Assembly: GCA_016209105.1 (NCBI GenBank)
Contig: JACQWR010000025.1
Span: 41,314-105,313, forward strand
Direction: 5' to 3'
Length of the DNA: 64,000 nt
From: Deltaproteobacteria bacterium
GTDB lineage: Bacteria > Desulfobacterota > Syntrophia > Syntrophales > JACQWR01
The position numbers and the translations under genes are program-made. Within the stretch, counting starts at the first letter, position 1; each line of letters opens with the position of its first letter. The notes beneath the pieces are model-generated. The model did no database searches. It saw nothing but the letters and a program-made list of their open reading frames with translations, and was not told where the DNA came from. Below are positions 50,206 through 62,218 of the stretch, one piece after another.

Positions 50206-50362
50206 AATTGTCCGCCTTTCCTTACGTTGCTTTGATTTGCCGTGTCCATACCAGAAGAGTTTCCTGAAGTCAACTCACCTGCTACAAACAACCCGAACTT
50301 GAAGCGACGGCGTATTCGACAGATAGAGTGCCGACCATACCCCCGCATTATGAGCAGGTCCT

Positions 50363-50980
50363 TTATGCTTGGATTGGTATTTTGGCCGGGATGTTTTCCT
50401 TTTTGATTCGAATTTCTACCACGGGAGGGTTAACATCAAAGTGTGTTGCTACCTCATTGGATATATACGACCAGACATCGTCCGGCATTTTTGCAAATTT
50501 TTTAAACGTTTCCTGATACTTTGCGACAACAGCGTTGCATACTTTTTCCAGTTGCACCGTCGGCACCAGTAGCTGACCCGCAAACCATTCTCCCTGGGTC
50601 TCAAACCAACTGATGTCTTCCTGCAACAGGGAAAGGCGCCATTTTACATATTCATCCGGTGTCCGGAATGGGAGGTCATCGTAACATGTTTTATGCAAAA
50701 CGTAATGTCCCAGTTCGTGAGCGAGGGTGTACCGGTATTTTTCATTAAACTGGCTGTATTGCGTTTCATCCACGTAGATCGTGGAAATGTCCCGGCTGAG
50801 AAATCCGTTGAGGCCGTGATCCTTGTATAGCCGGGGAAATGGAAAGATATCGAGCCCTAAATTCAATTCTATAATTTCTTCAACGGGTATGGGTATCTCA
50901 AATGACGGGTGGTGCTGATTAAGAAATGCCTGTACTCTGCTACCGATGTCTGCATAGCTGAGATAGGGAATATTAAACAT
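50363..50980 (-). CDS. ImmA/IrrE-family zinc metallopeptidase
   Basis: The HEXXH motif reads AHELGHYVLH. An ATGA overlap links it to the upstream XRE gene. Confidence 0.85.
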   Translation of the reverse strand: MFNIPYLSYADIGSRVQAFLNQHHPSFEIPIPVEEIIELNLGLDIFPFPRLYKDHGLNGFLSRDISTIYVDETQYSQFNEKYRYTLAHELGHYVLHKTCYDDLPFRTPDEYVKWRLSLLQEDISWFETQGEWFAGQLLVPTVQLEKVCNAVVAKYQETFKKFAKMPDDVWSYISNEVATHFDVNPPVVEIRIKKENIPAKIPIQA

Positions 50981-51360
50981 CAGCGCAATTCTTTCTTAAT
51001 AGCTTTGATAAGTTGTTGCAGGTCTTCTTCATTAAGGGTTTTATCTCTTACCGTCCTGAAGAGAACAGGGAGCGCGTTCATGACTTCTTCGTTGGACACG
51101 ATATCGGCCGGCAACTTTCCCGCGCTCGTGATTGCCAAATCGCAGAACGCCAGCCAGTCCTCCGTTCCTTCTTCAATCCCCAAGGCCAAAGCATACTTTA
51201 GGAGAAGTTCCTTCGAATGCGGCGGAGGAAACAAACCTCTCTCGATCTTGCTGATGTTTCCCGGGTCAAGCGCGTTTACACGACAAAACTCTCGTAGCGT
51301 AAGGCCTTTTGCTATTCTCTTTTCTTTGAAAAAGTTTCCAAAGGTCTTGGCAAAAACCAT
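50980..51360 (-). CDS. XRE-family helix-turn-helix transcriptional regulator
   Basis: FKEKRIAKGLTLREFCRVNALDPGNISKIERG is the HTH_3 pattern. ATG at 51360 with RBS gaaggggg. Confidence 0.85.
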   Translation of the reverse strand: MVFAKTFGNFFKEKRIAKGLTLREFCRVNALDPGNISKIERGLFPPPHSKELLLKYALALGIEEGTEDWLAFCDLAITSAGKLPADIVSNEEVMNALPVLFRTVRDKTLNEEDLQQLIKAIKKELR

Positions 51361-51513
51361 AATTTCACCCCCTTCCTGTTGTAAAAAATAATACAACAGG
51401 AGTCATCTGTCAATAGAAAATAACGGATGGATACTTGTCCCTTTTCATCATTATTTATCGGGAAATGTGTATCGGTTACCGGAGCGCGATCAGGATAGGG
51501 ATGTAATGGGGTT

Positions 51514-51861
51514 TCATTTTGTAATTACCAGGAAAGTCATTCCGCGCTTCCGGCACCAGTTCCGGGCGGCTTCATGCTTGCGTAGCGTGTCGGGATTGGT
51601 CAGATACTGCCCGCCCTTCACCTCGTGCAGTTCCACAGCGCCGTCCATCCTTTCGACAAGAAAATCGGGATGATAGCCACGCACATTCCCTGCCTCCGTG
51701 ACGTACTGGATAGCAATGCCATGATTTTTCGTCCATTTGGCAACGGTCTTGTCCTTCTCCAGGCGCTTCATGTATTGCCATTCCCAGGACGAGTCGTAAC
51801 GCTCAACGGAATATGCGCTTTTAAGGGGGTTTTCAAAATCGCCGCGCTCACTGGTCGGCAT
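51514..51861 (-). CDS. Small stand-alone PD-(D/E)xK nuclease-fold protein (TnsA-N-terminal-like)
   Basis: YHPDFLVERMDGAVELHEVKG provides PD...ExK. It overlaps the helicase gene end by 14 nt. Confidence 0.6.
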   Translation of the reverse strand: MPTSERGDFENPLKSAYSVERYDSSWEWQYMKRLEKDKTVAKWTKNHGIAIQYVTEAGNVRGYHPDFLVERMDGAVELHEVKGGQYLTNPDTLRKHEAARNWCRKRGMTFLVITK

Positions 51862-53857
51862 GTCCTGCCTCCTGCTTATAGTTTACAATGCTGGCAACCA
51901 ATCCGGGACGGTTCTTGAAGTTGGCAGCCAACCGGTGGCGACAGTTGAGGGCGTGTCGCAATTCCAAAACGCTCGCCGTGCCGACGGTTTTTTCGCCCAG
52001 CATCTTCTTGCGGACATGATCCATGAGCACGCCGTAAAGATAACCGAGTTCATGGGAGCCTATGCCTTCCTCCGCCAGGAGGTCGGCGGCTACATCTCTG
52101 ACACTGGTCTTCAAAAGCTCGGCAAGCTGGATGGGGTCGTCAATTTCACTCAGAGGCTTCCTAACGCCATAGAGCGCCGGGGCTTCACGAATCTCCCGGA
52201 AACCGGATCCGTCCAGGGTCTGCCCCACTATGCCGCTGATCTCAACGCGCGATATTTCCGTCTCCACGCCATAATCAAACTCGTCCAATATCTTTTGCCA
52301 CTTAGGATAATCGCTCGTCTCAATAGTGATATTGGCCAAATCATCGTCAAAATCGGCCTTTTCTTCTTCCAGCGGTTCGGGAAGAGGGATAAGCAGATCG
52401 GGATTGACGACGAATTGCGGCTTACGTTTGGGCGGCAGGTCTTCGTCTCCAAACAGGGTCGCCTGTCCCACGTCCTTGCGTACTTTCGCGCCGACGATAT
52501 CCCACAGCCAGTCGTGTTTGAGCTTTTCATGGTCCACGATGGCGCATATTTCCTGAAGATCCCTGTCGCGCACGTTCAGCCGGAGGCCGCGCCCCACAAC
52601 CTGCTGGCCATAAACCCGGCTGGAAAATTTGCGCAGCAGAAGGATGACCGAAACGGCAGGGACGTCCCAACCTTCGCGAAGCATGAGGACGCTGACGACG
52701 GCTTCATAAGGACTGCCGGACTTTCCCAGCTTGCGGGCGGCCTCCCGGTCTTTTTCGTCCGATTGTTCGGTGACCAGCAGGGTGCGGAGCTTGAATTGCT
52801 CTTCCAGCATGTCCCTGGCCTGCTGGGCGTCTCTGATGGTGATGGCGACGACAAAAAGGATGGGGTTATAGGCTCCTTTCGCCAAGGCGTCGGCGCGGCG
52901 TTTCTGTTCGGACAGCCGATCCAGGGCGATGCGTATCTGCTTGTGCATGGGGTCCGAGTCGGTGACCCACTGGGTTGACGACAGGCCCTTTTCGATCCGT
53001 TCAAACTCCTCGTCCATCTCGTCCACGGTGCGTTTTTCGCCCGTTTCCGGGTTGGTATAGGTGAGCTCGACGGAAGAAAGCTGGGGCTGATAAACAACGA
53101 TATTCTTGATGATCGGCGGTACTTCCGCCTGCGCGTCTGTGATGCTGTAATCGAAAATCATTTTCGTGTCCGGCACCTGTCCATCGGCGCGGTCAGGGGT
53201 GGCGGTCGTATCCAGCCGGAATTGGGAAATTTGTCTGAGGGTGAAGAGGGTGCTGTCATACTCCGCCGCCGGGGTGTTGTGCGCTTCATCGTTGAAGACG
53301 GCAATCCTCTCGTCCGCGTTCATCAGGATGGCCAGGTTGCGCTTGCCGCTGATATTGGCCTGGTACAACTGATGGATGTTGCCAAGGATGACGCCGTGAT
53401 CCCGGATGCCCTGCGGCCCTTCGCCGGGCTGCATAACGTGCAGCCCCAGGGTGTTGGCGTAATGCTCGGTGCCGGGCGGAAAGAAGCCGAAGTCGCGGAA
53501 TACCCTGGCGTCCGTAAAATCGTCTTCCAGCCGGTCGCGCACGATGGTGTTGGGGCAGAGGAGAAGGAACTTGTGAATATCGTGGCAGACCTTCAGCCAC
53601 GCCACCACCGCGCCGATAATGGCCGTCTTGCCGCCGCCCGTGACGATATTGAGCAGGAGGTCCTTCCACTGGAGCAGTTCATAGGCATAGACCGTGCGCA
53701 TGAAGGCCTCTTCCTGGTGCCGCCACAGACGGCGGGGCGCATCGGGGCGGGTGATGTGCGTCAGGAAGTCGCGGGTGAGCGGATTCACGTCCGGGAACGC
53801 CTTGGATGCCCACCAGGCACGGAAGTCCTGCTCATATGGCGCAAAAGAGTAATACAT
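51848..53857 (-). CDS. SF2 DEAH helicase, Type III restriction Res-subunit-like, without recognisable nuclease domain
   Basis: Motif I TGGGKT, motif II FNDEAHN, motif III TATP, and motif VI QQVVGRGLR. No PD-(D/E)xK motif is visible in the ~220-aa C-terminal region. Confidence 0.8.
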   Translation of the reverse strand: MYYSFAPYEQDFRAWWASKAFPDVNPLTRDFLTHITRPDAPRRLWRHQEEAFMRTVYAYELLQWKDLLLNIVTGGGKTAIIGAVVAWLKVCHDIHKFLLLCPNTIVRDRLEDDFTDARVFRDFGFFPPGTEHYANTLGLHVMQPGEGPQGIRDHGVILGNIHQLYQANISGKRNLAILMNADERIAVFNDEAHNTPAAEYDSTLFTLRQISQFRLDTTATPDRADGQVPDTKMIFDYSITDAQAEVPPIIKNIVVYQPQLSSVELTYTNPETGEKRTVDEMDEEFERIEKGLSSTQWVTDSDPMHKQIRIALDRLSEQKRRADALAKGAYNPILFVVAITIRDAQQARDMLEEQFKLRTLLVTEQSDEKDREAARKLGKSGSPYEAVVSVLMLREGWDVPAVSVILLLRKFSSRVYGQQVVGRGLRLNVRDRDLQEICAIVDHEKLKHDWLWDIVGAKVRKDVGQATLFGDEDLPPKRKPQFVVNPDLLIPLPEPLEEEKADFDDDLANITIETSDYPKWQKILDEFDYGVETEISRVEISGIVGQTLDGSGFREIREAPALYGVRKPLSEIDDPIQLAELLKTSVRDVAADLLAEEGIGSHELGYLYGVLMDHVRKKMLGEKTVGTASVLELRHALNCRHRLAANFKNRPGLVASIVNYKQEAGHADQ

Positions 53858-55503
53858 TATGTGACCTCGATGGTCTGCACGACGGTGCGTTCTCCGCCCT
53901 GGTCGTCCTGCACCGAGCAGGCAATCGTGTATTCACCGGCTTTGGGGAACGCATATTGGGCCGCCAACAGCGGCCTGCCCGTCTTTTTATCCCGTAAAAA
54001 CGAATAGCCCTGCGTGGACGTGAAACGTCCCGGCTTGTGCTTAAAATCCCACTGGACGTTGGCAATCATGCCGTCCTTGTTCAAGCTGACGGACTCCGAA
54101 ACGTCGAGCTCGTAAGTCAGGGCTTTGATGCGGCGCACCGCCACCCGCACTTCCGGCGGCTGGATAAAGCTGAGGAGGGGGGCATAGTCGCGGCTTTTGA
54201 TGACCACATGCTCGCGGAACTGGTCGTCTTCAAGACGGATCAGGTTAAGGCGCACAAAGTCTATGCGCCGGTTTTCGCGGGCGGCCAGGATTTCCGAGGC
54301 CTTGCGCGCGTCCGGGCCGAAGTTCCAGCCGAGCATGACGCCGTGATTGGCCCGGCGTTCTTCGTAAACGGCCCTGGCAAAAAGGGCAACGTCATCTCTG
54401 CCGATACGCGACCTCCGTGACGGCGCGCCGACGTAGAGCGGGACGCCGTAGCGCATGCCGTGGATGGCTTCCGTAACGCTCTCCGGCCGGCCGCCGAAGG
54501 CCTTGACGACAAACTCGCGGAACTGCTCCGCGGTGTATTGCTCCAGTTTGGGCGCTTCGTAGATCCCCCAATGCTCGATCGTAAAATCGGGAACGGGGAA
54601 CAGCATGCCGATTTTTTCTTCCACTATCTTGGCGATGCGATCGGCGGTAATGGCGACGGCAATCCGGGATTGGTCAGAGGCGACCCAGCGGCGGTTGAGG
54701 CGCTGGGCAACGGTGGTTGTGGTGCCCCCGCCGGAAAAGAAGTCGGCAACCACGTCGCCCTCGTTAGAGGAAGCCTTGATGACACGTTCAAGTAGTGGTT
54801 CTGGCTTTTGAGTCGGATAGCCGATACGCTCAAGACGATCGGAATTGTTAATCTTATCTATATCCCACACATCATCCAGAGGGCTTCCGTAGGCCATTGC
54901 TTCTTCAAGGTATCTTCTTACCCTTTGACCACCTCCGGCATCAGAAAGCACATACTCTTGTCCCTGTTCGTCTACATGCACCTTCTGTTTCCGTTTTTTA
55001 ACGTATTCGTCCTTATTCTCCCAAGGACGTTTGGGGTAGTTAAAGAGGTTCTTTTCTTGTTTTGCATAGAAAAGAAGGGAATCGTGCCTCCGTTCTAAGT
55101 GATTATCAAGTTGCTTGTTCCATCCTGAATAATGCCAGATCACTTCATTTCGGAAGTTACCGGCCCCAAAAATCTTGTCCATCTCCACCTTGACATAGTG
55201 GGCGGCGTGCCAGTCGAGATGCACATAAATGGAGCCGGTGGATTTAAGCAGGCGTTTCATCTCCCAGAGCCGCGCGTTGAGCCAGACCAGGTAGCCGGGC
55301 ATGCCGACTTCCCAGATATCGGAGAAGGAGCGCACCTCGTTCTTGTCGCCGAAGATGACGTTGTAGTTGCGGCCGGAAAAGAAGGGCGGGTCAATATAAA
55401 TCAGATCAATGCTCTCGCTCGGCAACTGGCGCAGATATGGAGGTTGTCGCCGAAAAACAGACGGTTGGCGCCCGTGGGGAAGAGTTCTTTCAGTTTGCGG
55501 CAT
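53857..55503 (-). CDS. N6-adenine/N4-cytosine DNA methyltransferase (beta-class, Mod-like) with C-terminal PKD-like domain; 5' part displaced by a frameshift
   Basis: Motif IV DLIYIDPPFF comes before motif I DFFSGGGTT. The C-terminus WDFKHKPG...YAFPKAGEYTIACSVQDDQGGERTVVQTIEV resembles a PKD/Ig fold. The TAATG junction is shared with the helicase gene. Confidence 0.8.
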   Translation of the reverse strand: MPQTERTLPHGRQPSVFRRQPPYLRQLPSESIDLIYIDPPFFSGRNYNVIFGDKNEVRSFSDIWEVGMPGYLVWLNARLWEMKRLLKSTGSIYVHLDWHAAHYVKVEMDKIFGAGNFRNEVIWHYSGWNKQLDNHLERRHDSLLFYAKQEKNLFNYPKRPWENKDEYVKKRKQKVHVDEQGQEYVLSDAGGGQRVRRYLEEAMAYGSPLDDVWDIDKINNSDRLERIGYPTQKPEPLLERVIKASSNEGDVVADFFSGGGTTTTVAQRLNRRWVASDQSRIAVAITADRIAKIVEEKIGMLFPVPDFTIEHWGIYEAPKLEQYTAEQFREFVVKAFGGRPESVTEAIHGMRYGVPLYVGAPSRRSRIGRDDVALFARAVYEERRANHGVMLGWNFGPDARKASEILAARENRRIDFVRLNLIRLEDDQFREHVVIKSRDYAPLLSFIQPPEVRVAVRRIKALTYELDVSESVSLNKDGMIANVQWDFKHKPGRFTSTQGYSFLRDKKTGRPLLAAQYAFPKAGEYTIACSVQDDQGGERTVVQTIEVT

Positions 55504-55793
55504 TGCTCGTTCTCCGCCAGGAACCGGTCATTATGCCCGAATTCCACACGCTGGACTTCCTGAAAAGGCAGGCGGATCGTGGGGTAGGCGTGCTGAAACT
55601 TGGTAACTTTTACCTCATGCCGCCGCGTCTCCACTTCCCAGCCGAGCGGAGCTTCGTCAACCGGAACCGCCCCGAATCGCGTCGGCAGTTGGAAGTGTTC
55701 TTTCTGTTCGGGGATGCTGTCTTCACCGGGCGCAGGCGGCTCGATGAAGGAGATTTCCAGTTCTTCTTCTGAGGTCGTTTTTTTGCGGGGCAT
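55401..55793 (-). pseudogene. Displaced N-terminal segment of the methyltransferase gene (different frame)
   Basis: It ends ...NRLFFGDNLHI, while the other frame continues YLRQLPSESIDLIYIDPPF. Together they form the usual xxGDNLxxLxxLPxxSIDLIYxDPPF block, which implies a 1-nt deletion near 55431-55440. Confidence 0.65.
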
Positions 55794-55934
55794 AAGCCAG
55801 TCTCTTGAAGTGGCTGGGCACAATACAACCATTACCAGTTGTCATTTTGCATATTTACTAAAGTCCGTCAACCGAATACTTCGGGAATATATCTGCCATC
55901 TCAGGCACCCTCTTTTGCCCCTCCTGTAGCCGTC

Positions 55935-55962
55935 TTGACAAGCCGGATTTTGTGACTATATT
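55935..55962 (+). promoter_or_regulatory. Sigma-70-type promoter TTGACA-16-TATATT upstream of the hsp20 cluster
   Basis: cTTGACAagccggattttgtgacTATATT. It would give a leader of about 185 nt before the ATG at 56154. Confidence 0.5.
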
Positions 55963-56153: not shown

Positions 56154-56597
56154 ATGTTTAGCCCAGAAATTTGGAGGTTCGGCAGAATGATGGCGCCTAT
56201 CCCTGAGATACAGAACCTGCGCAGGGAGATGAACAGGGTTTTTTCAGGGATCAGCCAGGAGGTAAGCCAGGATTTTCCCGCGGTGAATGTGTGGGTTGGA
56301 GAGAACGATGCGATTGTAAATGCCGAGATACCCGGGGTGGAGATCGAAAAAATAGATATCTCGGTTATTGCGGATTCTCTGAGCATCAGCGGCTCCCGCG
56401 AGCCGGCGACACTGGGGGAAGGCGAGAGCTACTATCGCCAGGAAAGGGATTTCGGCCGCTTTACCCGCACCCTGCGGCTGCCGTTTAATGTTGAGGCGGA
56501 TAAGGTGGATGCCCGGTACGAGAATGGGGTTCTGTCCATAACCCTGCCGCGGGCGGAAGCGGACAAGCCGAAGAAAGTGGCGATAAAGACACAATAA
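56154..56597 (+). CDS. Hsp20/alpha-crystallin family small heat-shock protein (1 of 3)
   Basis: RBS aaaggagg. FPAVNVWVGENDAIVNAEIPGV...RTLRLPFNVEADKVDARYENGVLSITLPR. Confidence 0.9.
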   Translation: MFSPEIWRFGRMMAPIPEIQNLRREMNRVFSGISQEVSQDFPAVNVWVGENDAIVNAEIPGVEIEKIDISVIADSLSISGSREPATLGEGESYYRQERDFGRFTRTLRLPFNVEADKVDARYENGVLSITLPRAEADKPKKVAIKTQ

Positions 56598-56614
56598 GGA
56601 AAGGAGATGATGGT

Positions 56615-57016
56615 ATGGCTGAGGAAAAGAGAGAGATTCAACATCAATCCGGAACAGGTACGGCGGAAGGTGTCGTGAGGAGGATCTTTGTTCCGAAGGT
56701 AGATATATATGAAACACGCGACGCGATCGTGATCATTGCGGACATGCCGGGCGTAAGCACCGATTCCGTGGAGGTTACGTTGGAGAAAAATATCCTGACG
56801 ATCAAGGGAACGGCCCTGGCGCCGACCAGAACGGGATCATACACTGCCGTTTATGCCGAGTGTGAGCCGGGAGGAGAGTACCGGCGCAATTTCACGATTT
56901 CCAACGAAGTGGATCGCGAGAAGATTGAGGCGACGGTGAAAAATGGCGTCCTGCGCCTGACGCTGCGTAAGGCCGAGCTGCTCAAGGTCCGGAAAATAAG
57001 CGTCAAGGCTGCATAA
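56615..57016 (+). CDS. Hsp20/alpha-crystallin family small heat-shock protein (2 of 3)
   Basis: PKVDIYETRDAIVIIADMPGV...RNFTISNEVDREKIEATVKNGVLRLTLRK. Confidence 0.9.
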   Translation: MAEEKREIQHQSGTGTAEGVVRRIFVPKVDIYETRDAIVIIADMPGVSTDSVEVTLEKNILTIKGTALAPTRTGSYTAVYAECEPGGEYRRNFTISNEVDREKIEATVKNGVLRLTLRKAELLKVRKISVKAA

Positions 57017-57041
57017 CAATACAAGAAAGGAGGAAAAGAGT

Positions 57042-57548
57042 ATGGCTATCAGAAATCTTGTACCCTCGCTCTGGGGAAAAGGCAATCTCCCTGCGCGACA
57101 GGCCGGGGAATATCCTGTCTTTTCTCTCCAGCGGGAACTAAACCAGTTGTTCGATGATTTTTTCCACGGGTTCGACGTTTCGCCCTTCGGTCTTACCGAG
57201 GATCGGTTCCAGGGGTTCCTACCCTCCGTGGATGTGGATGAAAGCGAAAAAGAGGTAACCGTCCGGATCGAACTCCCCGGGATGGAAGAGAAGGATGTAG
57301 ACCTCCTGCTTACGGAGGATTCCCTTACCATCAAGGGAGAGAAAAAAAAGGAGACGCAGACCAGGGAAAAAGAGTATTATCGGATGGAGCGCACCTACGG
57401 CGCCTTTAACCGTGTAATCCCGCTTCCCGATGGAATTGATACGGGGCAGGCCGACGCGTCCTTTAAAAACGGCGTTCTTACCGTCAGGATTGCCAAGACG
57501 GCGACCGCCAAGGCAAAGGGGAAAAAGATTCCCATCAAAACGGAATAA
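57042..57548 (+). CDS. Hsp20/alpha-crystallin family small heat-shock protein (3 of 3)
   Basis: PSVDVDESEKEVTVRIELPGM...FNRVIPLPDGIDTGQADASFKNGVLTVRIAK. Confidence 0.9.
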   Translation: MAIRNLVPSLWGKGNLPARQAGEYPVFSLQRELNQLFDDFFHGFDVSPFGLTEDRFQGFLPSVDVDESEKEVTVRIELPGMEEKDVDLLLTEDSLTIKGEKKKETQTREKEYYRMERTYGAFNRVIPLPDGIDTGQADASFKNGVLTVRIAKTATAKAKGKKIPIKTE

Positions 57549-61210: not shown

Positions 61211-62218
61211 ATGAAGCGATACGCTATAGCAATTTCTGTTGTTTTGTTTCTTGTTTCTCTGCTCTTTCATCCCCGCCAACTAATCGCAGCGCCATACTAT
61301 GAAGGCAAGGTGATCAACATTATCGTCGGGTATGGTCCCGGCGGCGGCTACGACCGCATTGCACGCCTGGTTGCAAAACACCTTCCCAAGCATATTCCCG
61401 GCAAACCGACCATCCTTGTCCAGAACATGCCCGGCGCGGATAGCATGATTGCCGCCAATTACCTCTACAATATCGCCAAACCGGACGGACTCACCATCGG
61501 CGCGTTCAATAGAGGCCTTGTTTTTGCCCAGTTGCTGAAGGCGGATGGGTGCAAGTTCGATCTGCGGAAGTACGCCTGGATAGGGTCGGCGGCGATAGAG
61601 AGCACCGTCCTGGTGCTGCGCACCGATCTTCCCTACAAGACCATAGAAGATGTTGCCAAGTCAAAAACAACAATTGTTCTCGGCAACACCGGCCCTGCCG
61701 ACAGCAGCGGCCAATTCCCGCTCTTTATGAAAGAATTTCTCGGCTACAATTTTAAATTCGTTACCTATCCTTCCGGCGCCGATATCATGCTGGCCATCGA
61801 ACGGAAAGAGGTGGACGGACGGGGGGTGACGTACAGCTCGGTAAAACCGTTTATAGATAGGGGGATCGTGCAGCCGCTCGTCCGCGGTCGGGTGGTTGAG
61901 GCGGGGATAGAGAAACTCCCGATGGATGAAGAGCTCGCGAAGGGAGTCCGGGAGAAGACGTTGATGGCCATGCGTTCCGCGCCGGACAAGGTCGGCAGGC
62001 CCTATGTTGCTCCGCCCAAAACGCCGGATGCGACCATGCGCATTCTATGGGACGCCTTCGCCAAAGTGGCAAAGGACCCGGCGCTTCAGGAAGATGCGAA
62101 AAAAAATAAACTGGCGGTGGACTATGTGCCGGCCAAAGAGGTGCAGAAGGTATTGCAGTACATCTTCAATCAGCCGCCGGAAATCGTCAGCGAATTTGGA
62201 AAGTATATAAAGTTTTAG
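61211..62218 (+). CDS. Tripartite tricarboxylate transporter substrate-binding protein (TctC/Bug family)
   Basis: Signal peptide. GPGGGYDRIARLVAKHLPKHIPGKPTILVQNMPGA is typical of the Bug family. No tctA or tctB gene is adjacent. Confidence 0.8.
   Translation: MKRYAIAISVVLFLVSLLFHPRQLIAAPYYEGKVINIIVGYGPGGGYDRIARLVAKHLPKHIPGKPTILVQNMPGADSMIAANYLYNIAKPDGLTIGAFNRGLVFAQLLKADGCKFDLRKYAWIGSAAIESTVLVLRTDLPYKTIEDVAKSKTTIVLGNTGPADSSGQFPLFMKEFLGYNFKFVTYPSGADIMLAIERKEVDGRGVTYSSVKPFIDRGIVQPLVRGRVVEAGIEKLPMDEELAKGVREKTLMAMRSAPDKVGRPYVAPPKTPDATMRILWDAFAKVAKDPALQEDAKKNKLAVDYVPAKEVQKVLQYIFNQPPEIVSEFGKYIKF

Follow-up and report, generated by a model that had tools for sequence, protein, structure and literature searches.

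A small ndk-hsp20 island that probably places a Type III-like module with a separate nuclease beside an independent XRE/ImmA cassette

Two kinds of described system bear on the island analysed here, an insertion carrying restriction-modification (RM) genes and an XRE/ImmA gene pair in the genome of a Syntrophales bacterium (Deltaproteobacteria bacterium, assembly GCA_016209105.1). The stretch studied, hereafter the window, comprises 64,000 nucleotides of contig JACQWR010000025.1 (positions 41,314 to 105,313 of the forward strand), and coordinates below are positions within it unless another locus is named. The first kind is the Type III RM system, represented by EcoP15I and EcoPI and by enzymes with a Res of the BPTD_3080 family. 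In these systems mod is followed by res in one operon with a stop/start overlap, and the classical Res is a fusion that bears its nuclease domain at the C-terminus. Cleavage by Type III enzymes is ATP-dependent and requires two asymmetric sites in inverse orientation, and the sites are hemimethylated. A third Type III component has been described as an extra ATPase encoded 5' of mod (Murray et al. 2021), an arrangement that differs from the one reported below.

The second kind is the pairing of an XRE-type helix-turn-helix (HTH) repressor with a zinc-dependent peptidase. CapH and CapP, such a repressor and an M78 peptidase, regulate defence operons, those of CBASS and DISARM among them (Lau et al. 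2022 preprint; Calloji et al. 2026 preprint), and the pair is reported always to lie upstream of its operon and on the opposite strand (Lau et al. 2022). According to the CapH/CapP literature, the C-terminal GAF domain of CapP forms a groove that senses single-stranded DNA (ssDNA), together with a cysteine-switch loop. In the ImmR/ImmA pairs of ICEBs1 and phages, and in DdrO/IrrE, a repressor gene is followed by the gene for a COG2856 HEXXH protease in one autoregulated operon. Makarova, Wolf and Koonin (2009) listed the Xre-COG2856 pair as a mobile module resembling toxin-antitoxin (TA) systems and related to ImmR/ImmA, its role being unsettled. A preliminary description of the window proposed that here the two kinds had been joined, with the XRE/ImmA pair coupled to the RM genes in a single signal-inducible defence locus. 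The comparisons below do not support that coupling.

The island and its two blocks of homology

Open reading frame (ORF) calling of the window places six co-directional ORFs on the minus strand at 50363-55832, between ndk and hsp20/dnaJ, exactly as the preliminary description had them. Comparison with L184, the closest relative found (Ndk 96% identical), reveals that they occupy a true insertion. In L184 the site is empty and hsp20 directly adjoins ndk across a spacer of 321 nt. Identity between the window and L184 stops at 55929 and picks up again at 50275, which sets the borders of the island within the hsp20-ndk intergenic region at 50276-55928 (5,653 bp, minus strand). The empty site bears out the earlier view of an inserted island without an integrase: no integrase was found among the called neighbours of the island, no tRNA gene in the 64-kb window, and no flanking direct repeats or target duplication at the island borders. 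It also disposes of the possibility, raised at the outset, that a routine Type III RM system occupies the ndk-hsp20 site in all relatives. Two further near relatives carry other genes beside ndk, and the island is thus not a fixed feature of the site. In L183, whose Ndk is identical to that of the window, the contig does not reach the island border.

Alignment resolves the nucleotide homology of the island into two independent blocks. The first (51516-55892, minus strand) runs from the promoter of mod to the stop codon of the nuclease gene and comprises an RM module as a transferable unit, with its own promoter, mod, an ATPase gene and a nuclease gene; it is 85% identical over 4,381 nt to L103. 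The second (50340-51425, minus strand) comprises the XRE/ImmA cassette as a transferable unit, with promoter, operator and both genes; it is 88% identical over 1,088 nt to L188-L191, reaches 65 nt upstream of XRE and 23 nt past ImmA, and has neighbours in L188-L191 that differ from those in the window. The GC content at third codon positions (GC3) is 0.49-0.54 in the XRE and ImmA genes, as against 0.60-0.73 in the RM genes and approximately 0.72 in the flanking host genes. Furthermore, a promoter scan predicted separate promoters for the module and the cassette. The separate homology blocks, together with the difference in GC3, point to two modules of different origin.

The same separation is seen when the RM module is followed into other genomes. 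A Mod/ATPase/nuclease module was recovered in 83 further loci from several phyla, none of which contained an XRE/ImmA homologue; in 44 of them the sequence continues for 1.2 kb or more beyond the nuclease gene, and in 30 it extends 1.2 kb or more upstream of mod. The helicase and nuclease genes on the one hand and XRE/ImmA on the other are thus unlinked in all 83, a result that speaks against the pairing proposed in the preliminary description. Taking these observations together, we consider it probable that the island is a small defence islet in which two independently mobile modules stand side by side, and not one system.

The Mod/ATPase/nuclease module

The first gene of the module, mod (53857-55793, minus strand), encodes a beta-class N6/N4 DNA methyltransferase (PF01555, E=2.9e-44, DPPF motif). 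Both diagnostic motifs are present, motif IV (DPPY/F) as IDPPF and motif I (FxGxG) as FFSGGG. Its start was assigned to the ATG at 55793, the position at which, in the alignment, the genes of L102 and L103 also begin. The predicted promoter (55844-55871, minus strand; 9/12 matches in the promoter scan) consists of TTGACG at 55871-55866, a 16-nt spacer and CAAAAT at 55849-55844, and it is conserved in L103, a locus without XRE/ImmA. When mod was compared with that of L001, which encodes an intact homologue of 654 aa, both ends of the protein were found to be conserved and the central 440 nt or so (about 54690-55130) could not be aligned. This variable block lies between the catalytic and S-adenosylmethionine (AdoMet) motifs, where the target-recognition domains of beta-class enzymes sit.

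The stop codon of mod overlaps the start of the ATPase gene in the sequence TAATG at 53857. The ATPase gene (51848-53857, minus strand) encodes a 669-aa, Res-like protein of superfamily 2 (SF2) with Walker A (GGGKT), DEAH and motif VI (QxxGRxxR) and no nuclease domain (ResIII E=3.3e-13; Helicase_C). More than 100 homologues were found, of 662-672 aa and 68-96% identity, in metagenome-assembled genomes (MAGs) labelled Proteobacteria, Chloroflexi, KSB1, Verrucomicrobia and Elusimicrobiota; in 13 of them, spanning the same range of identity, the motifs GGGKT, FNDEAHN and QQxxGRGLR are invariant. The third gene (51514-51861, minus strand) overlaps the ATPase gene by 14 nt (51848-51861) and has its own Shine-Dalgarno sequence, AGGAGG, 7 nt before its ATG. 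It encodes a PD-(D/E)xK nuclease of only 115 aa (Tn7_TnsA-like_N E=1e-12; RE_endonuc), the catalytic residues of which (E27, P65, D66, E80 and K82) are each shared by at least 97% of the 56 distinct homologues compared.

In gene order, overlap and operon structure, with one promoter upstream of mod, the module thus resembles a Type III RM system, as it does in the beta-class character of its Mod with a central variable region and in the SF2 motifs of its ATPase. Homology links the nuclease, additionally, with the C-terminal domain that fused Res models contain; it matches positions 738-826 of 871 in PADLOC REase_III (PDLC03648) and 851-940 of 970 in the NCBIfam BPTD_3080 model (NF046055). The module departs from the classical type, however, in encoding the nuclease apart from the motor, in a 115-aa ORF that has a ribosome-binding sequence and start of its own. 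The ATPase matches the motor portion of the fused Res models, but weakly, and models of Type III Res were the only ones it matched in PADLOC and NCBIfam: it scores 27 bits against NF012027 (cut-off 564) and 64 bits against NF046055 (cut-off 800), and matches REase_III with E=7e-8 over about 100 residues. Lying so far below the curated thresholds, it is not a formal member of the curated Res families. Searched against the PDB, the ATPase sequence did not find EcoP15I Res and matched only RadD and XPB-like motors (E of approximately 1e-3), while the nuclease sequence matched nothing. Annotated plasmid records yielded only helicases of 24-26% identity, and the ATPase has therefore acquired no curated name.

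Mod also departs from the Type III pattern. It scores better against PADLOC models of Type II methyltransferases (1e-59) than against those of Type III Mod (4e-39) and is closer to Type II beta-methyltransferases such as M.RsrI. Its N-terminus carries an extension of approximately 105 aa without a family match, and residues 464-547 of its C-terminal frame give a weak match to a PKD domain (E=1.9e-4, below the Pfam cut-off), a possible C-terminal domain that would be unusual for a DNA methyltransferase.

The separation of motor and nuclease is not peculiar to the window. The nuclease is a separate polypeptide in all 83 further loci, and wherever the sequence extends far enough downstream, the next gene after that for the ATPase is the nuclease gene, in most cases with the identical 14-nt overlap. 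A Mod homologue is encoded 5' of the ATPase gene across these loci, with other genes in between in 18 of them. A search of JGI metagenomes confirmed at least 477 matches. No conserved fourth gene was found 3' of the nuclease gene, there being no family in more than 2 of 93 downstream neighbours, and neither M78 nor HTH proteins were among the families that recur (at least twice) there. The simplest reading of these sequences is that the module is Type III-like, with a Res that would be natively split, and not split by mutation, into a motor and a detachable mini-nuclease.

Judged by its domains, an intact Mod of about 654 aa would recognise and methylate DNA, its central variable region serving in target recognition; the 669-aa SF2 ATPase would act as the Res motor or switch; and the translationally coupled 115-aa protein would supply the cleavage domain that classical Res bears at its C-terminus. 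We infer that the three subunits assemble. No description of this three-gene architecture was found in the literature on split Res or on TnsA-like nucleases in Type III systems. The earlier identification of an RM-like methyltransferase/helicase/nuclease module with a split Res is thereby supported, and of the wider proposal that the locus is the best candidate in the window for an undescribed defence variant one part stands: the split-Res module is a modestly new variant, which may deserve a name and a hidden Markov model (HMM) of its own. The other part does not, since the locus as a whole is a juxtaposition.

The junction between mod and the ATPase gene was observed to be a hot spot for cargo. 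Genes found there include AbiEi/AbiEii, NYN, PIN, a Schlafen/AlbA_2 ATPase, BRO-N, a STAND-like AAA_16 protein, PHP-AAA_21 with DUF1828, and IS200 (loci L006, L009, L112, L132, L140, L148, L158, L161 and others). The flanks of the module are equally varied and likewise hold small defence or TA cargo. Because the RM module so often collects small cargo, the presence of another small module beside it is unremarkable.

In the window itself the module is damaged. As the preliminary description noted, mod occupies two frames, with ORFs at 53857-55503 and 55401-55832, and the cause proved to be the deletion of a single base between 55434 and 55433. The Mod of L001 runs uninterrupted through this point: GDNLHIMRQLPGESIDLIYIDP. 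The N-terminal frame accordingly covers 55401-55793 and the C-terminal frame 53857 to about 55433, and the protein is broken at about residue 120, inside a conserved GDNLHI-(L/M)RQLP...DPPF segment that aligns with the core of M.RsrI.

It might be argued that the RM module is still active, the frameshift being either an assembly artefact or a lesion bypassed by reinitiation at a TTG (which would give a Mod of 522 aa) or by ribosomal frameshifting. Both genes 3' of mod retain full-length ORFs, with identities to relatives of 96% (ATPase) and 93% (nuclease), gene callers give a 522-aa ORF that starts just after the shift, and indel errors do occur in metagenome assemblies. However, the deletion is present also in L011, and mod is split identically in at least three separately assembled samples (Logan) besides the window. 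The site, CATATC/TGCG with the slash at the deletion, is neither a homopolymer nor a slippery heptamer, from which we take the deletion to be probably real; and the break, as noted, lies within the conserved segment.

Disruption of Mod is, moreover, common in this family. Among 58 assessable loci, 11 have a Mod disrupted by frameshift, insertion sequence (IS) or truncation, some to mere stumps, while ATPase and nuclease are intact: L006 (IS insertion), L009, L104, L115, L116, L120, L130, L157, L171, L174 and the window. Loss of Mod with retention of an intact ATPase and nuclease is the pattern expected if restriction depends on Mod, for the loss would then be harmless, and it suggests that Mod loss is the tolerated route to inactivation of the module. 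Activity of the module in the window is therefore an unlikely proposition. If Res needs Mod to find its sites, as analogy with Type III systems implies, a broken mod leaves the RM part probably non-functional here; most likely the whole system is off and its decay has begun.

The XRE/ImmA cassette

Downstream of the nuclease gene, and separated from it by a gap of 153 nt (51361-51513), lies a gene for an XRE-family HTH repressor of 126 aa counted from its ATG (50980-51360, minus strand), whose matches to HTH_19 and HTH_3 fall below the Pfam cut-offs. It is followed by the gene for an ImmA/IrrE-type zinc metallopeptidase of 205 aa (50363-50980, minus strand; Peptidase_M78 E=1.7e-6), the HELGH sequence of which provides the motif H88-E89-xx-H92. 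The recognition of these genes as a repressor-protease pair of the XRE/ImmA type was sound. Of the tight junctions reported at the same time, the TAATG, the 14-nt overlap and the 153-nt gap were all confirmed; the junction of XRE and ImmA, which had been read as ATGA, is in fact TGATG, with a 1-nt overlap at 50980.

The cassette was found as a conserved unit in many settings. ImmA homologues are 55-100% identical and always about 205 aa in length, and one derives from an archaeal MAG. A homologous 126-aa XRE gene lies immediately 5' of ImmA in 31 species-level genomes from many phyla, with unrelated flanks.

The promoter scan placed a promoter directly before XRE (51385-51413, minus strand; TTGACA, 17-nt spacer, TATTTT; 10/12 matches). 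Its -10 hexamer is overlapped by a perfect inverted repeat, TGTTGTA-N8-TACAACA (51377-51398), which is the sole copy in the window and which we regard as the XRE operator. Consistent with this assignment, GTTGTA-N7(8)-TACAAC occurs just upstream of XRE in 27 of the 31 cassette loci, across a range of XRE identity of 37-83%; it usually lies over the -10 of a TTGACA-type promoter and is present twice in some loci. The position of the operator over the -10 hexamer implies that the cassette carries its own autoregulated promoter. When a second operator was sought in the window, allowing up to 3 mismatches, nothing was found bar a chance-level match at 61651, and there was none at mod. The only recognisable regulatory target of the cassette in the window is thus the cassette itself.

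In its gene order and autoregulation the cassette resembles ImmR/ImmA and DdrO/IrrE, and it resembles the Xre-COG2856 pairs in being a two-gene operon of repressor and zinc protease with a patchy, mobile distribution in TA and defence neighbourhoods. It differs from ImmR/ImmA, a component of mobile elements that also carry an integrase and divergent excision or early genes, in lacking adjacent integrase, excision or phage genes and in occurring across many phyla as a bare two-gene unit, and from Xre-COG2856 pairs and the fused HTH-peptidase RmrA of RosmerTA in lacking an adjacent toxin gene and in having unfused domains, although ImmA gives weak PADLOC matches to RmrA over the HEXXH region. 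In a TA-like pair the protease would be expected to be toxic and its Xre partner to neutralise it.

CapH/CapP shares with the cassette an XRE-type repressor, an M78 peptidase and a setting in defence islands, and the peptidase domain finds its best match in CapP, both structurally and in PADLOC. An AlphaFold2 model of ImmA (pLDDT, a confidence score, of 93.9) had as its best structural matches CapP (7T5T) and IrrE (3DTI), with TM (structural similarity) scores of approximately 0.5 when normalised to the query and confined to the peptidase domain. The PADLOC capP model likewise covers the peptidase part of ImmA only (positions 7-124 of 242), and the ImmA model is helical from residue 108 to the end. 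From the match to the first half and the helical C-terminus we conclude that the 205-aa ImmA, unlike CapP, has no GAF domain and hence no ssDNA groove.

We propose that a dimer of XRE would bind TGTTGTA-N8-TACAACA over the -10 and so repress its own bicistronic operon. As ImmA, IrrE and CapP suggest by analogy, the peptidase may cleave XRE on some signal, and we infer a proteolytic derepression of this kind. With itself as its only recognisable target in the window, the cassette would be a self-contained TA-like or stress-switch module and not a controller of neighbouring RM genes.

One cassette copy, in a Saccharibacteria MAG (L047), has a further feature. Just after ImmA (L047:10600-10860) there is a second cassette promoter with a perfect operator, followed by approximately 190 nt without an obvious ORF and then by a hairpin terminator. 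This stretch could encode a small RNA or a peptide that XRE controls. The second operator was considered as a sign of RM control and rejected, the hairpin terminator standing some 190 nt further on, before the methyltransferase operon.

Relation between the module and the cassette

Several observations weigh against the reading of two independent modules and for a functional coupling of the kind first proposed, in which XRE/ImmA would serve as a protease-gated controller or sensor of the adjacent RM system, a cleavable analogue of a controller protein (C-protein) or of CapH/CapP. In one variant XRE would repress mod, the ATPase gene and the nuclease gene, possibly through everted half-sites; in another the cassette would react to the DNA breaks that restriction causes. 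The first of these observations concerns neighbours. DNA methyltransferases are the commonest neighbours of the cassette family: confirmed methyltransferase genes lie at a distance of no more than 2.3 kb in 8 of 32 cassette loci, and a motif screen for them picked out 13 of the 115 ORFs found within that distance, as against 0 of the 110 found 4.5-10 kb away. Such closeness is non-random.

Two individual loci point the same way. In a Syntrophaceae MAG (L014:1272-6621, equivalent to L025) a cassette with 69% ImmA identity is divergent from a canonical Type III operon, encoding a Mod of 531 aa and a fused Res of 862 aa (PADLOC REase_III E=4e-117), and a single operator stands in the 168-nt spacer, a layout like that of CapH/CapP. 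The closest relative of the cassette (L188-L191, 93% ImmA identity) is preceded on its 5' side by genes for a Type IIG enzyme and a PsyrA-like protein. Some 145 nt before that cassette there is a 29-nt relic of the 3' end of the nuclease gene (L188:7383-7411, also in L189-L191; 28/29 identical to 51545-51573 of the window), which codes for EAARNWCRKR. The junction of nuclease gene and cassette must accordingly predate the lineage of the window.

Within the window, coupling could draw on a pair of everted operator half-sites, ACAAC-N8-GTTGT(A), in the 5' untranslated region (UTR) of mod (55825-55842). The pair is unique in the 64 kb, where 0.22 occurrences were expected; counted from the predicted mod promoter it covers about +2 to +20, the homologous promoter in L103 does not have it, and it was spotted post hoc. 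In addition, terminator prediction yielded nothing between the nuclease gene and XRE, so that transcription from the RM promoter could run on into the cassette. Finally, pairs like CapH/CapP are known to regulate a diversity of defence operons (Lau et al. 2022 preprint).

Against coupling, first of all, stands the absence of the cassette from every one of the 83 other module loci. Its RM partners, moreover, all differ in type (Type I HsdM, Type II C5 and N6/N4, MmeI-like, Type IIG and canonical Type III), and their orientations vary, as would be expected from shared residence in islets. The relic in L188-L191 does not add a second case: the RM partner has since been swapped in that lineage, and the shared nuclease-cassette junction counts as one historical event and not as two independent associations. 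The everted pair has a geometry opposite to that of the conserved cassette operator and is unfit for a dimer that binds GTTGTA-N7/8-TACAAC. Near the promoters of partner RM systems in other cassette loci the number of half-sites is at chance level, and the sole canonical operator in the window is the copy at the cassette's own promoter.

Neither of the proposed models for such a controller fits the arrangement in the window. CapH/CapP lies upstream of its operon and divergent from it, whereas the cassette follows the RM genes in the same orientation, has no operator at the neighbouring operon beyond the everted pair, and encodes an ImmA devoid of the domain by which CapP senses ssDNA. C-proteins are encoded upstream of, or overlapping, the restriction endonuclease gene, with C-boxes before their own gene, whereas XRE comes 153 nt after the end of the last restriction gene and has an operator only at its own promoter. 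Furthermore, the RM partner to be controlled is frameshifted. With the separate homologies, promoters and GC3 values, these results leave the proposal of a coupled, signal-inducible locus unsupported, and we regard it as improbable. The closeness of the cassette to methyltransferases fits better with co-residence in very small defence islets, of which RM genes are the most abundant residents.

A broader version of the proposal would make the XRE/ImmA family a dedicated protease-gated companion of RM systems of any type, as controller or as sensor of restriction damage, acting here through the site in the 5' UTR of mod, with the three-gene module constituting a distinct, unnamed, ATP-dependent RM subtype. 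We hold this version to be quite unlikely.

Very improbable, lastly, is that XRE/ImmA is the leftover ImmR/ImmA-type immunity region of a degraded prophage or integrative element that delivered the RM module: ImmR/ImmA modules likewise set the repressor gene before the protease gene in a single autoregulated operon (discussed by Makarova et al. 2009), the cassette is AT-rich relative to the host, and BRO-N and RhuM genes stand near some of its copies, but there is no integrase, excisionase, att repeat or tRNA to be found, the island is only 5.65 kb with clean borders, the homology block ends close on either side of the two genes, and the bare cassette recurs in more than 30 unrelated contexts with no integrase family among its recurrent neighbours.

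Outside the island, three tandem hsp20 paralogues followed by dnaJ occupy 56156-57548, and the layout is identical in L184, which lacks the island. A strong sigma-70-like promoter (55935-55962; TTGACA, 16-nt spacer, TATATT) faces hsp20 from just beyond the island border.

The value of the locus in the window is mainly negative, in that adjacency within a small island is no ground for announcing a new signal-inducible defence system. Its RM module, by comparison, belongs to a family that is widespread in environmental bacteria and that defence annotation, given its weak scores in PADLOC and NCBIfam, would probably register as no more than a methyltransferase and a generic helicase. Recognition of the module as Type III-like with a detachable nuclease would improve the annotation of RM and defence systems, and the split Res offers a natural system for asking how a nuclease is recruited to its motor. 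The conserved TGTTGTA-N7-TACAACA operator, for its part, provides a testable handle on the large Xre/COG2856 family.

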